From Cetorhinus maximus (Eukaryota), in NCBI RefSeq assembly GCF_964194155.1, contig NC_135896.1, positions 96,100,001-96,164,000 of the forward strand: 64,000 nucleotides of DNA. Direction: 5' to 3'. Below are positions 7,243 to 55,903 of the stretch, piece after piece; position 1 is the first letter of the stretch; the number at the start of each line of letters is the position of its first letter. Below the pieces are notes generated by a model, which saw nothing but the letters and a program-made list of their open reading frames with translations, was not told the DNA's origin and searched no databases. The translations under genes were made by a program, and so were the position numbers.

Positions 7243-7347
7243 AAACAAAAACAGAATTACCTGGAAAAACTCAGCAGGTCTGGCAGCATCGGCGGAGAAG
7301 AAAAGAGTCGATGTTTCGAGTCCTCACGACCCTTCAACAGAACTCAA
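7243..7347 (-). mobile_element. Short Penelope-derived insert with hammerhead motif
   Basis: PLE 3' end on the minus strand, flanked by an 11-bp direct repeat GGCAAAGTTGA (7232-7242, 7348-7358). Confidence 0.85.
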
Positions 7348-7870
7348 GGCAAAGTTGACCCTACCTCTAGAGATGATGTCACCAGCATATAGATGAGGCT
7401 AGGGGGACTGAGAATATACCCCTGGGAGGATGTCAGAGGTCGAGGTGCAGGGTGGGAAGAGAATCCATTGCTGGAAGTGCAGTCTAGTAAGTGGAATTTA
7501 AGCAAGTTTTCAAACCATCTTGGTCTGCTTTATTGTCTCAGTAGCATGACTGAGAGACACATGAGCTTTCTCTCCTGCTGCCAGGTTTCAATGACTTCCT
7601 CACCATAGCAGGATGCACTGCTCCATCCAGTGTTACTGACAGAGATCAAGAGCAACTTTCAACAGCTTAACTCCGAACAATGGGCTTTTAAACAGAGGTG
7701 GCCAGACTCACACAAACGGAACAATGTGCTTTTAAGCCGCTGTCAATATTTAAGGTCTGCAGGAATATTCAGAGTTCTTCCCTCTCATGGGCACAATTGC
7801 GGGTTCGTTGTGGCCACTCAGTAAACACTCAGCGTATTTAACCTGAAGCCAAAAAGACAGGCGGGTTCAG

Positions 7871-8000
7871 GGCCAGGATTTTACAGCCCTCTGCTGTGGT
7901 GTGTCTCCCCCCAGCGGATATGGCGAGTTATTTAAATCTCCATCCAGTTTGGCAGGATTGTAATATCCCACTGGGCGGGAGGGTCAGTGAAAGCCTGGCC
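7871..8000. mobile_element. 130-bp Harbinger-type MITE
   Basis: TIRs GGCCAGGATTTTAC / GTGAAAGCCTGGCC (12/14 match). 3-bp TSD CAG at 7868-7870 and 8001-8003. Confidence 0.7.
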
Positions 8001-8354
8001 CAGGTCCAGGTGATCAGTGTGTGTTTCTGAAATGTTCTACCTGACTTGCCTCGGGGGTTAAGGGAGAGAGAAAATTAGCCCCAGGTTGTTATCCTTAACC
8101 CGGCCGTATTTTAAGTAACGAGATGCGGCAAGTTAATTTGTTTTTTAGATAGTATTTTTCCTGCTGTTTATTTCTATTATCTTGTGTATTCTTGTTAGCT
8201 TTCTCTAGCTCTGTTTGACGCACTGCGGAGAAATTCATTTTCGCCAGGCACACCATAAGGATTGCGTGTTACAATTCACCCAGGGAGTCCGAGTTGCTGT
8301 GGCAACACATGCTTTTACATACATGACGTAGCCTGGAGCTATGACTAGCGATGT

Positions 8355-8555
8355 TATCCATCACAAGGCTGACCAGCAATCTCTCCCGCTCTTACCGCCC
8401 GCCATCGGCGTGTGTTGGAAAGATTTGTGGGTTGATACTCACCCTGTTTGGCCATGTCCTGATGCACCTTCCTTGGCCATCGCGTACTGGAGTGGGACCT
8501 AACCTGGAGCTCCTGTCTCAGAGGCGAGAATGCTAACCACTGTGCCACAAGACCT
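8355..8555 (-). mobile_element. tRNA-derived SINE (family also at 13610-13810)
   Basis: Reverse complement aligns with 13610-13810, with a tRNA-like head (TGGCACAGTGG...GGTTAGGTCCCACT). Confidence 0.6.
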
Positions 8556-51920: not shown

Positions 51921-51929
51921 AGCCTCTGG

Positions 51930-52260
51930 AGAGGACGTTTCCTCTTGTGGGAGAATTTAGAACTAAGGGTCACTTTAGAAATAAGGGGTCGCCCATTTAA
52001 GACAGAGATGAGGAGAACGTTTTTCTCTGAGGGTTTTGAGTCTTTGGAACTCTTCCTCAAAAGGCGGTGGAAGCAGAGTCTTTGGATATTTTTAAGGCAG
52101 AGCTAGATAGATTCTTGATTAACAAGGGGGTGAAAAGTTATCGGGGGTAGGCAAGAATGTGGGGTTGAGGTTACGTTCGGATCAGTCATGATCTTATTGA
52201 ATGGCAGAGCAGGCTTGAGAGGCCGAGAGACCGATTCTACTCCTAATTCATATGTTCGTA
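51930..52260 (+). mobile_element. CR1-type LINE 3' fragment
   Basis: LEIRGRPFKTEMRR, then a CR1 3'UTR ending CTCCTAATTCATATGTTCGTATG. Confidence 0.78.
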
Positions 52261-53254
52261 TGGTGGTCACTATAGAATGAGAGTCTTTTTTCCTTTGTTG
52301 TGGAATGGAAAGCACAGTGACTACCTGACCAAATGTAGGACAGATCTTTAAGAATCCAGTAGAGAGATAAGCTATTCGTAAAATTGTTTATTCCTCTTAT
52401 TCTCCTGAGGGTGTTGATCCTCCCTGCTGTATGTTTCCACTGACGCTGTGAGCTACCTCAGTTGGCCATTGTTGGCACGTTCAGTGTGTTGGTCGTGACA
52501 GTTGTACCTGTTTCCCACTTGATGCACTTTACGGAGGTGGGCTGTTGGATTGAGATCTGGATTCCGTGCTACCGAGGCCAGTTGTAGCCTCCCTACTGAA
52601 ATTCACCACTCGCCCCAGACCAAAGATTAAACTTGGGACCTTCTTTTTCTCTATGATTGACCACTGCACCGGGTGGTGAACTAACTTACTGAGCCACCCA
52701 ACAAGACGGTTTATTTTGACAGGACTTCGTTGCTGATAATTTGGTTGCAGTAGATTTGCTTTATTTTAAGCAATTGTGAGCCTAAAAGTGAGAACTGTGT
52801 TTTTTGATGCATAAATTATCTTATAGATGTTTTCTTATCTTATAATTATTTTATAACGGAAGGATGCCATTTAGCCCATTGAGTTAGTGTTAAATCTTAA
52901 ACTGGAGCTGTTCTTTTTCCATTTCCTTACCTTTTCTCTGTCTTTGATACTGCTTTTCAAAGACTATACTTAAACCCTTTAAGTGATCTAGTTTCTTACT
53001 TTACCACAAGTGGCTAGAGGCTTTTGGAATACTTTTGTTTAAGTTCAATTCTTGGACAGGGAGAGCTTATAGTGAAGATTAGTTTAATCTCAAAGTGAAG
53101 GTATCCAAGTTCATCTCCATTGTTGAATTATTTCTCAAGTATTAACAAGCAATGGGTTCATTCAGAAAAAATCCTTAGCAAAGGTGGCTTGAAATGACTG
53201 CTGCGGAAGAACAAACTGGCAATAGTAAATAGCCTACAGAATAGAAATGGAAGA

Positions 53255-55903
53255 GTTAATGTTTCGAGTCCATATGACTTCTTCAGAACTAAAGAGAAGT
53301 AAAAGTGTGGTGAAATATATACTGTTTAAGGGGGGTGGGACAGGTGAAGCTGGATAGAAGGCCAGTGATAGGTGGAGGCAAAGGAGAGATTGCAAAAGAT
53401 GTCATAAACAAAAGGTTAAAGGGGTGTTGATGGCGGTGATACTGGCTAAAGGAGATGCTAATGGTGACATTAAGAGTAGAAAGCAGAATGAGCAAGTGGT
53501 AGATGGCCTGAGTGGGGTGGGGGAAGGGGACAGTGTGGGAGAAAAGATCAAAATAAGCTAAAAGGTGGGGATAAAACAATGAATGGAAATAAATTTTAAA
53601 AATAGGTGGGGAAAATATATATATATAAAAATTTTATTTAAATATTTGAAAAAAGGGGCTCACAAAGGGGTGAGGGTGGAGGAGAGAGTTCATGGTCTGA
53701 AGTTGTTGAACTCAATGTTAAGTCTAGAGGGCTGTAAAGTGCCTAATCAGAAGCTGAGGTGCTGTTCCTCCAGTTTGTGTTGAGCTTCACTGGAACATTG
53801 CAGCAGGCCAAAGATAAGACATGTGGGCATGAGAGCAGGATGGGCTGTTGAGATGGCAAGCAACAGGGAGGTCTGGGTCATGCTTGCAGACAGACCAAAA
53901 GTGTTCTGCAAAGCGGTCACACAGTCTGCGTTTGGTGTCTCCAATGTAGAGGAGACCGCATTGGGAGCAGCGAATGCAGTAGACCAAATTGAGGGAAGTG
54001 CAAGTGAAGTGCTGCTTCATGGACATCCAATCCCTCTACACCTCCATCCCCCACCAGGATGGTCTGAGGGCTCTCTGCTTCTTCCTTGAACAGAGGCCCG
54101 AACAATCCCCATCCACCACCCCTCTCCTCCGTCTGGCTGAACTTGTTCTCTCACTGAACGATTTCTCCTTAAACTCGTCTCACTTCCTCCAAATAAAAGG
54201 TGCGGCTATGGGTACCCGCATGGGCCCCAGTTATGCCTGTCTCTTTATGGAGTATGTGGAACATTCCTTGATCCAGTCCTACTCAGGCCCCCTCCCACAA
54301 CTCTTTCTCCGGTACATCGATGACTGATTCAGTGCTGCTTCATGCTCTTGTCTGGACCTGGAAAAATTTATTAATTTTGCTTCCAATTTCCACCCCTCCA
54401 TCACTTTCACATGGTCCATCACTGACACTTCCCTTCCTTTCCTTGACCTCTCTGTCTCAATTTCTGGTGATAGACTGTCCACCAATACTCATTACAAACC
54501 CACTGACTCCCACAGCTACCTTAACTGCAACTCCTCACACCCTGCTTCCTGTAAGGACTCCATCCCATTCTCTCAGTTTCTTTGCCTCCGTCACATCTGT
54601 TCCGATGATGTCATTTTCCAAAACAGTGCTTCTGACATGTCTTCCTTAACTGAGGTTTCCCACTCATGGTGGCTGACAGGGCCCTCAACCGTGTCCGACC
54701 CATCTCCTGCACCTCTGCCCTCACACCTTCCTCTCCCTCCCAGAAACATGATAGGGTCCCCCTTGTCCTTACCTTTCACCCCACCAGCCTCTGCATTCAA
54801 AGGATCATCCTCCGCCATTTCCACCAACTCCAGCATGATGCCACCACCAAACACATCTTCCCTTCACCCCCCCCCCCCCCCGGTCGGCATTCAGTAAGGA
54901 CCGTTCCCTCCGGGACACCCTGGTCCACTCCTCCATCACCCCCAACACCTCCCACGGCACCTTCCCGTGCAATCGCAGAAGGTGCAACACCTGCCCCTTT
55001 ACTTCCCCTCTCCTCACTGTCCAAGGGCCCAAATACTCCTTTCAAGTGAAGCAACATTTCACTTTCATTTCCCTCAATTTAATCTACTGCATTCGCTGTT
55101 CCCAATGCGGTTTCCTCTACATTGGAGAGACCAAACACAGACTGGGTGACCGCTTTGCAGAACACCTTCGGTCTGTCCGTAAGCATAACCCAGACCTCCC
55201 TGTCGCTTGCCATTTCAACACACCACCCTGTCCTCATACCCACATGTCAATCCTTGCCCTGCTGCAATGTTCCAGTGAAACTCAACGCAAACTGGAGGAA
55301 CGGCACCTCATCTTCCGATTATGCACTTTACAGCCTTCTGGACTTAACATTGAGTTCAACAACTTCAGATCATGAACTCTCTCCTCCATCCTCACTTCTT
55401 TATGATCCCCTTTTTTCAAGTATTTATTTTTATATACATATTTTTCCCGCCTATTTTTATTATTAATTTTTATTTTATTCCCATTCATTGTTTTATTTCC
55501 ACCTTTTAGCCTATTTTGATATTTTTTTTCTCACACCGTCCCCCAACCTACCCCCACTAGGGCCATCTGTCACTTGCTCATTCTGCTTTCTACTCTTAAT
55601 GTCACCATTAGCACCTCCTTTAGCCAGCATCAACAGCCCTTCGACCTTTTGTTTATGACATCTTTTGCAATCTCTCCTTTGCCTCCACCTATCACTGGCC
55701 CTCTATCCAGCTTCACCTGTCCCACCCCCACTTAAACAGTATATATTTCACCATTTTTACTTCTCTTTAGCTCTGAAAAAGAGTCATACTGGCTCGAAAC
55801 GTTAACTCTGCCTTTCCACGGATCTTGACAGACATGCTGAGTTTTTCCAGCAATTTTTGTTTTTGTTTCAGATTTCCAGCATCCGCAGTTTTTTGCTTTT
55901 ATT
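53255..55903 (+). mobile_element. Penelope-like (Neptune-type) retroelement, 5'-truncated, with inverted 3' duplicate (53255-54018, - strand)
   Basis: RT motifs MDIQSLYTSIP, GAAMGTRMGPSYA and LRYIDD. Linker CNRRRCNTC. GIY-YIG LIYCIRCSQCGFLYIGET..HFN..GLN. TSD ATAG(A/G)AATGGAAGA at 53241-53254 and 55904-55917. Stops and frameshifts are present. Confidence 0.92.

Follow-up and report, generated by a model that had tools for sequence, protein, structure and literature searches.

The DNA analysed here is a 64,000-nucleotide stretch of the Cetorhinus maximus genome (NCBI RefSeq assembly GCF_964194155.1, contig NC_135896.1, positions 96,100,001–96,164,000 of the forward strand), referred to below as the window. 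It holds a KATNBL1-like gene and EMC7, recognized by the Pfam domains Katanin_con80 and EMC7_beta-sandw, respectively, with both exon sets on the plus strand, and a scatter of short inserts that carry a minimal hammerhead ribozyme motif. As judged from sequence, the motif is the known minimal hammerhead of the pseudo-long terminal repeats (pLTRs) of Penelope-like elements (PLEs), and the inserts appear to be mostly broken end-pieces of a still-intact PLE. This motif class and its link to PLEs are already published (PMC4209133; reviewed by Weinberg, 2019, PMC6765202). New here are a series of A, U and C at core position 6 within one lineage, whose variant end includes intact elements, and tallies of how long and short insert ends pair.

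Copies were located with a profile hidden Markov model and exact patterns. Motif positions are counted from the A of AGTT, the 5' arm of stem I (+1), which places C3 at +5, position 6 at +8, G8 at +10, A9 at +11, an extra A at +12, stem II at +13 to +27, G12 at +28, A15.1 at +31, U16.1 at +34 and H17 at +35, with the predicted cut between +35 and +36; the hammerhead numbering follows established knowledge and PMC7151607. Copies are called A6, U6 or C6 after the base at position 6, A being canonical. Fold integrity was judged with a strict descriptor comprising the core, a 5 bp stem II, the 15.2–16.2 pair and a 4 bp stem I, which gave no match of any kind in 30 Markov-simulated windows used as a chance control. 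The inserts and host exons are listed below (ORF, open reading frame; RT, reverse transcriptase); copies absent from the list in the original prediction, which was made from the letters of the window, are marked as added.

7241–7344, minus: short pLTR copy, +1 to about +104; hammerhead at 7344–7306, U6, stem III decayed (ACAT)
12249–12482, both strands: one head-to-head insertion with a 13 bp target duplication
12249–12482, minus arm: core truncated at about +9, with a long tail
12249–12482, plus arm: starts at +4, U6, G12 lost, short end
20080–20420, plus: 5'-truncated PLE 3' end with promoter-like region; left border approximate
20322–20360, plus: hammerhead within 20080–20420; U6, GGGTC/GACCC stem II, stem III decayed
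26590–26756: one head-to-head insertion with a 12 bp target duplication; minus arm tail-only
26659–26697, plus: hammerhead of the plus arm of 26590–26756, which starts at +2; U6, stem III decayed
27133–28420, minus: 5'-truncated PLE with GIY-YIG remnant, 3' pLTR and long tail
27231–27269, minus: U6 hammerhead with H17 = U and an intact fold; runs antisense to the KATNBL1-like gene
27270–27300, minus: TATA-like TATATTT about 30 nt above +1 and initiator-like sequence at +1 (putative promoter)
28490–28583, minus: old decayed copy (added)
30767–30841, minus: old decayed A6 copy from a more distant family; starts at +2 and has a broken stem II
33322–33530: a single head-to-head insertion, old CUGAAGA family, with a 14 bp target duplication and decay in both arms; between KATNBL1-like exons
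37855–37988, minus: old short copy, starts at +1, core deletion; KATNBL1-like intron
42708–42846, minus: old decayed copy (added)
46994–47110, minus: pLTR fragment; hammerhead at 47073–47035, intact fold, U6, H17 = C
47278–47644, minus: PLE 3' end with long tail; hammerhead at 47419–47381, intact fold, U6, H17 = C
47645–47743, plus: head-to-head partner, starts at +2, short end; U6, G10.1–U11.1, 6 nt loop
51039–51177, plus: old short copy, starts at +1, core broken; EMC7 intron 1 (added)
53250–54019, minus: inverted PLE arm with GIY-YIG remnant and pLTR
about 53290–53254, minus: hammerhead in arm 53250–54019; A6, 2 nt deletion, stem III decayed
53983–55375, plus: broken PLE ORF with RT (RVT_1, E = 8e-6) and GIY-YIG (E = 2.5e-4), stops and frameshifts
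55376–55895, plus: 3' pLTR with long tail; hammerhead at 55769–55807, A6, G8 lost, stems mismatched
32574–39386, plus: KATNBL1-like coding exons found (Katanin_con80 in three fragments)
50009–62474, plus: EMC7, five coding exons

State of the copies in the window

The original prediction had counted at least a dozen copies, and a recognizable motif is present at all 14 of its sites, nine on the minus strand (7305, 12340, 27231, 30804, 33420, 37950, 47035, 47381 and 53255) and five on the plus strand. Several are the two arms of one insertion: 12340 with 12384, 26621 with 26660 and 33420 with 33461 each form a single head-to-head insertion with a target duplication of 12–14 bp. The profile gives 25 matches at E ≤ 1e-3 in the window, tail-only pieces among them. 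The motif family is real and its window copies are mostly decayed, a state that the prediction had overlooked. By the strict descriptor no window copy combines A6 with all stems intact, and four have an intact fold with U6 (27231, 47035, 47381 and 47647, the last with a G–U closing pair). U6 is found in eight of the 14 listed copies, and stem III has been lost through CpG decay (ACGT to ACAT) in seven. Position 6 had been written as either A or T; it is normally a fixed core base, and most copies lack A6.

The predicted covariation of stem II (GAGTC/GACTC versus GGGTC/GACCC) is mostly a matter of one-sided exchanges (A–U, G–U and rarely G–C); the single two-sided stem change seen is U10.4–A11.4 to C–G. 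Rather than varying freely, the stem II loop is family-specific (ATACG, ATGAG, ATGAA or GTGTG) with decay added, and of the proposed stem III palindrome the central ACGU is common to all families, but the full AACGUU occurs only where H17 is U. An Rfam scan of the window gave 15 matches at E ≤ 5, none of them to a hammerhead family, as expected for a motif that has no stem III loop; the MIR6457 match (12291–12469, under the gathering score) is only the head-to-head hairpin. The pLTR copies at 46994–47110 and 47278–47644 lie 346 bp apart and show no difference across some 110 bases, private changes among them. The first is truncated on either side, and a local duplication or a tandem product is suggested.

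The parental element and the anatomy of its inserts

Remnants of RT and GIY-YIG lie upstream of the copies at 27231, 53255 and 55769, in the same orientation as the motif. A search of the same genome (3.99 Gb) with the RT piece of the window, from an old A6-type element, gave 27,625 candidates; 150 were scored, and the 20 loci with the longest open frames among these (762–924 aa) were examined. The arrangement pLTR–ORF–pLTR, with the motif in both pLTRs, is found at loci L189, L190 and L192. The L189 ORF encodes 917 aa, with matches to Pfam RVT_1 (E = 3e-7, above the cutoff) and GIY-YIG (E = 4e-4, just under the cutoff) and a C-x4-C-x2-C linker ahead of GIY-YIG. The full element consists of a pLTR, this ORF and a second pLTR, and its ATG lies about 170 nt downstream of the hammerhead. 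PLEs are recognized by a single ORF with RT plus C-terminal GIY-YIG between direct pLTRs, as seen at L189, and by an inverted 5'-truncated partner and a 30–40 bp tail at one end, which are also present. With RT/GIY-YIG remnants 5' of window copies and intact ORFs that have the motif in both pLTRs, the Penelope origin first proposed is borne out, and the minimal type I layout, with its nucleotide between 9 and 10.1 and palindromic stem III, agrees with PMC4209133. The CX4CX2C linker points to the Neptune/Nematis side rather than to Poseidon. A PDB sequence search with the 917 aa protein gave no matches. At L191 (2046–7907), two intact 924-codon open frames stand head-to-head, 312 bp apart, in a very young palindromic double element.

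The 339 distinct copies in all fetched DNA comprise 160 with a long end (near +141), 143 with a short end (near +101), seven that run into the 5' untranslated region (UTR) and 29 that are unclassified. Neighbouring copies within 1.5 kb of each other (114 pairs from the window and fetched loci, many of them picked by pattern and a few possibly counted twice) are arranged head-to-head in 79 cases, tail-to-tail in 20 and on the same strand in 15. Among the 74 head-to-head pairs with enough flank, 59 join one long and one short end, four have two ends alike and 11 include an unclassified end; 45 of the 74 are flanked by a duplication of 13–16 bp (mode 14 bp), whereas none of 740 mismatched controls exceeded 9. 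The 5' starts of 141 copies that were not selected for the hammerhead are distributed as follows: 52 at least 60 nt upstream, 17 at −59 to −9, ten at −5 to −1, 25 at +1 to +4, 16 at +5 to +13, 13 at +15 to +28, three at +34 to +36 and five later. A TATA-like TATATTT stands about 30 nt above +1 in all eight family consensuses, and contigs from runs of other organisms likewise have loose ends, both at +1 and close to +101 and +141. The sequence ahead of +1 in the stubs shows no common exon, and G, sought as a cap signature in this small sample, precedes four of the nine copies that start at +2.

From these ends we infer that the RNA starts at +1 and that reverse transcription is primed within its 5' UTR by each of the two ends of a staggered cut. 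The RNA would begin at the A of stem I, 30 nt below the TATA-like box; the endonuclease would make a 13–14 nt staggered cut, and its two ends would prime at about +141 and about +101. The insertions observed pair a long with a short end, head-to-head, between the two copies of a target duplication. Complementary DNAs that reach the RNA 5' end would yield the +1 stubs, and read-through or tandem RNAs would yield copies running back into the ORF. The insert anatomy fits internal priming on uncut PLE RNA and does not call for a separate small RNA. Basal families have A at position 6 and younger families U or C, with the remaining core bases and pairings kept. We consider it likely, although well short of certain, that the inserts are pLTR pieces of one long-lived PLE lineage, probably copied from the uncut 5' RNA end, and that the hammerhead lost A6 in the younger families, where it would be slow or non-cutting and dispensable for jumping.

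The younger families (L198 6100–6195, minus strand) have a GT at about +86 in the 5' UTR and a pyrimidine tract with AG just ahead of the ATG; the older families have no such GT. A putative 5' UTR intron between these points would take out both priming sites. Its joint, from +86 to the ATG, was found in none of the contigs of four runs, the RNA status of which is a guess. Insertions at L205 and L059, on different contigs, have an identical 14 bp target duplication, which may stem from insertion at one shared site within another repeat or from a segment that was duplicated.

Position 6 and cleavage

A single pattern split by the base at position 6 finds 59,036 exact motifs genome-wide (about one per 68 kb), with no match to reversed-pattern controls. 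A6 is present in 10,754 of them, and the other 48,282 (82%), including 584 with G6, lack the canonical core; narrower patterns give 22,693 U6 and 18,813 C6. None of the 20 long-ORF loci has A6 in its element-linked pLTR (16 C6 and four U6). On 60 arbitrarily placed 10 kb stretches (600 kb), the profile gives 57 matches, about one per 10 kb, from which some 380,000 fragments are extrapolated; the strict descriptor finds seven intact folds in the same stretches (two U6, five C6 and no A6). A very large genomic population had been predicted from about one motif per 5 kb, and the 59,036 exact motifs uphold it, but the window is about four times denser than the genome average.

A tree of 122 long copies, built with the hammerhead columns left out and rooted on two CUGAAGA copies, forms a ladder from CUGAAGA through CUGAUGA and CUGUUGA to CUGCUGA/CUGCCGA, with C6 arising more than once. 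The median distance to the nearest family consensus in an unselected sample is 0 for C6 (n = 6), 0.025 for U6 (n = 14) and 0.05–0.08 for A6 (n = 21). In the five non-A6 family consensuses none of 14 core positions varies, compared with 15 of 40 at −40 to −1, six of 18 at +40 to +57 and 49 of 150 upstream. The family-level stem changes that followed the loss of A6 all keep pairing (A–U to G–U at 10.2, U–A to C–G at 10.4 and U–A to U–G in stem I), and the young families have G10.1–C11.1, the nucleotide between 9 and 10.1 and paired stems I and II. Pairing is kept in 97.6% of the stem cells of 23 distinct copies chosen by hand, a figure inflated by relatedness and not a significant covariation test. 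All eight family consensuses retain G8, G12 and the palindrome ACGU, which contains a CpG, and have U or C at H17. U6 elements are also present in assembled contigs from runs of four other organisms, a comparison that used a U6 reference and speaks to presence, not to proportions at position 6. C at position 7 is frequent beside U6 in contigs of other organisms (position L198 6270; runs X3, X14 and X23; 65% of depth in X3); this is a separate drift at position 7.

The lowest-energy fold predicted for U6 copies pairs the core UGUU with the stem III AACG. The active dimer lies above two monomers by about 6.5 kcal/mol for U6, 3.7 for A6 and 2.3 for C6, in calculations without tertiary contacts on one or two copies each. 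Minimal PLE hammerheads are weak even as dimers (PMC4209133). The natural A6C hammerhead has a kobs below 0.1 per min, keeping low activity and cleaving well in Mn (PMC3088659; PMC7151607), and an engineered A6C loses about five orders of magnitude in 0.3 mM Mg and is still active in Mn (PMC7151607). Because of this loss of activity in A6C, the weakness of the dimers and the mispairing of the U6 core, the U6 and C6 variants, if unaided, probably have weak cleavage or none; activity assisted by protein or metal is an appreciable but minority prospect.

Two truncation patterns that demand three mismatches at +30 to +32 yielded 620 copies in families B/C6 and 372 in families A/A6, and the first 100 of each set were tallied by eye. 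The B/C6 copies start at +33 (9), +34 (13), +35 (10), +36 (14), +37 (2), +38 (8), +39 (4), +40 (13), +41 (14), +42 (6) or later (7), and these 100 show no sharp peak at the cut site (37 at +34 to +36, 14 at +37 to +39 and 33 at +40 to +42). The A/A6 set divides into 43 members of an untruncated subfamily that is 2 nt longer, nine deletions or non-matches and 48 truncated copies. Of 15 B/C6 loci with near-cut starts that were inspected among 60 fetched, 11 were flagged as inverted junctions, and such starts are confounded because AACT or the GTTAAC palindrome offers microhomology at these junctions. Cut RNA would have been a rare template at most, and a weak footprint is possible.

Several observations weigh against our preferred reading of pLTR pieces copied from uncut RNA with a dispensable hammerhead. 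The position +1 also reads as a pyrimidine tract followed by AG, which makes a splice acceptor an alternative to a start site, and the intron of the D. virilis PLE ends at helix I (PMC4209133). Five or six A6 copies fall within the first U6 cluster of the tree, the root of which was assumed at the two CUGAAGA copies. Within-cluster divergence overlaps (0.022–0.036 for A6 and 0.034–0.038 for U6), which implies that the families are partly contemporary, and the A6 families are less well referenced in the age comparison; the order A6, U6, C6 is soft. The segment +58 to +100 is nearly as conserved as the core (four of 42 positions vary), and core conservation need not therefore mean catalysis; likewise, loss of A6 need not abolish it. 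Only one stem change is two-sided, and the old AGCU family has a C–A mismatch in stem I. As many as 17 of the 48 truncated A/A6 copies start at +35 or +36 (ten U6-type and seven A6-type), about twice an even share. The evidence consists of genome sequence and assembled contigs from runs whose RNA nature is a guess.

A possible alternative, which we hold to be tenable without expecting it, is that U6 and C6 motifs function as dimeric ribozymes with help from the PLE protein, tolerating changes at position 6 once chaperoned; the cut after +35 would then deprive some of the RNA of its capped leader and so adjust translation or copy number. The retention of G8, G12, ACGU and H17 in all eight consensuses, the three stem changes that keep pairing and the mild excess of starts at +35/+36 in families A/A6 agree with this view, as do the protein requirement for cleavage by the anole PLE hammerhead (PMC11167929) and the residual, Mn-responsive activity of the natural A6C ribozyme. 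It is opposed by the B/C6 starts, which have no sharp cut-site peak and include 11 inverted junctions out of 15 inspected, and by the modelled U6 fold, which traps the core against stem III and leaves the dimer about 6.5 kcal/mol uphill. In a more speculative and rather unlikely version, the lineage would record a core evolving from A6 through U6 to C6 while mobile; U6 and C6 would be protein- or metal-gated ribozymes missed by CUGANGA descriptors (about 48,000 hidden motifs), and A6U would act as a brake through pairing of the core with the palindrome. The literature searched contains no report of A6U or C6 PLE hammerheads, with subscription papers, one Cervera 2014 supplementary file, the Li 2026 supplements and Lunse 2017 outside its scope.

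It is doubtful that the hammerhead is fully vestigial and that its conservation reflects DNA or protein-binding needs, such as a core promoter or an RNA handle for the PLE protein. The motif does sit at the putative start site, +58 to +100 is similarly conserved, and Naiad PLEs are unharmed without hammerheads, which may parasitize PLEs (PMC8557442); yet the pairing-preserving changes in stems I and II beside a variable loop indicate selection on the RNA fold, and the retention of U or C at H17 is left unexplained. The original prediction suggested a non-autonomous, retrozyme-like RNA of about 130–150 nt, and a family of this kind, like short interspersed nuclear elements or retrozymes, with its own RNA mobilized in trans is very improbable: many copies do span only +1 to +101 or +141 with no ORF, and animal retrozymes descend from PLE pLTRs (Li, 2026, 10.64898/2026.07.22.740005), but copies have their start within +1 to +4 or far upstream in the PLE, reach to +101 or +141 and occur as head-to-head pairs, the units do not run from cut to cut and form no head-to-tail arrays in the window (same-strand neighbours make up the 15 of 114 pairs given above), and the stubs lack the upstream promoter-like region, carry the diagnostic bases of the full-length families, are often the partner arm of an ORF-bearing copy and lack the sequence past the priming sites into which the active anole PLE RNA extends (PMC11167929).

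Host genes, neighbouring sequence and known systems

The placement of many copies in KATNBL1 and EMC7 introns holds for 33420 and 37950, which lie between KATNBL1-like exons, and for 53255 and 55769 in EMC7 intron 1, but 7305, 12340/12384 and the three copies near 47 kb fall outside the exons found. The copies from 20321 to 30804 are probably intronic in the KATNBL1-like gene, the 5' end of which was not located. Sense-strand copies in or near introns (20321, 26660, 51037 and 55769) are all broken, and the intact 27231 is antisense; because no sense-strand intronic copy in the window has an intact fold, the inserts probably matter little for the host genes.

Other features of the window include a 353 aa open frame with a DDE_Tnp_4 domain (391–1449, plus strand; E = 2e-21), which we take to be a Harbinger/HARBI1-like transposase. 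A 59 bp GC-rich tandem repeat at 16775–17057 (4.8 copies, 96% alike, with an internal hairpin) lies in CpG-rich sequence, a candidate for the promoter of the KATNBL1-like gene, and a 1.4 kb G-rich minisatellite of 29/30 bp units (48592–49966) lies immediately upstream of EMC7 exon 1. Two further dispersed repeat families, D13 (9229, 12764, 45446, 61734 and 63683) and D20 (13231, 44360, 56339 and 58259), are presumably CR1 or short interspersed element ends.

For the role of PLE hammerheads this lineage provides a natural A6/U6/C6 series against a single sequence background, and its variant end includes intact elements. Should the U6 and C6 RNAs fail to cleave, this very successful PLE lineage will have jumped with no working ribozyme, in support of the anole in vitro result described below; should they cleave, descriptors understate the tolerance of the core and counts per genome fall far short.

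The copies resemble the minimal hammerheads of metazoan PLEs (PMC4209133) in their type I topology, 4 bp stem I, extra nucleotide between 9 and 10.1, G10.1–C11.1 pair and loopless palindromic stem III, as well as in their pLTR location, their thousands of dispersed single copies and their opposite-strand pairs. They differ in that the core variant described there is U3–A8, with no position 6 variant in the text covered or in the two of three supplementary files searched, and in number, with 2,000–9,000 per genome there versus 59,036 exact motifs here; the part of that paper covered mentions no shark. The non-LTR retrozymes of Li (2026) share the type I hammerhead and pLTR ancestry, and one is found in a chondrichthyan, but they form head-to-tail tandem units instead of dispersed head-to-head copies. 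The natural A6C hammerhead of phage Bcep176 (PMC3088659; PMC7151607) likewise has an altered position 6 in an otherwise intact core; it is a single phage case with a full stem III, unlike the family state in tens of thousands of retroelement copies seen here, and the text covered of these two papers contains no report of A6U.

Neptune and Nematis PLEs (Craig, 2021, PMC8557442) have the same C-terminal GIY-YIG, CX2–5CxxC linker, inverted 5'-truncated partner and one-end tail, a likeness in linker and anatomy; no microsatellite targeting was noticed in the flanks inspected. A mechanistic comparison is possible with PAc, the Poseidon-clade PLE of Anolis carolinensis (Frangieh, 2024, PMC11167929), in which the ATG lies inside the hammerhead, unlike the lineage described here with its ATG about 170 nt downstream, its CX4CX2C linker and its loss of A6. 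In PAc both strands are cut and extended, two internal priming sites bound the tail, uncut RNA is the dominant template, with no reads at the cut site, and hammerhead mutants insert normally in vitro, cleavage occurring only with protein. As far as the insert ends indicate, the two lineages are alike in the two priming sites that flank a 30–40 bp tail, in two-strand cleavage and in the use of uncut RNA as template, and the pair anatomy described here provides genomic support for two-ended internal priming.

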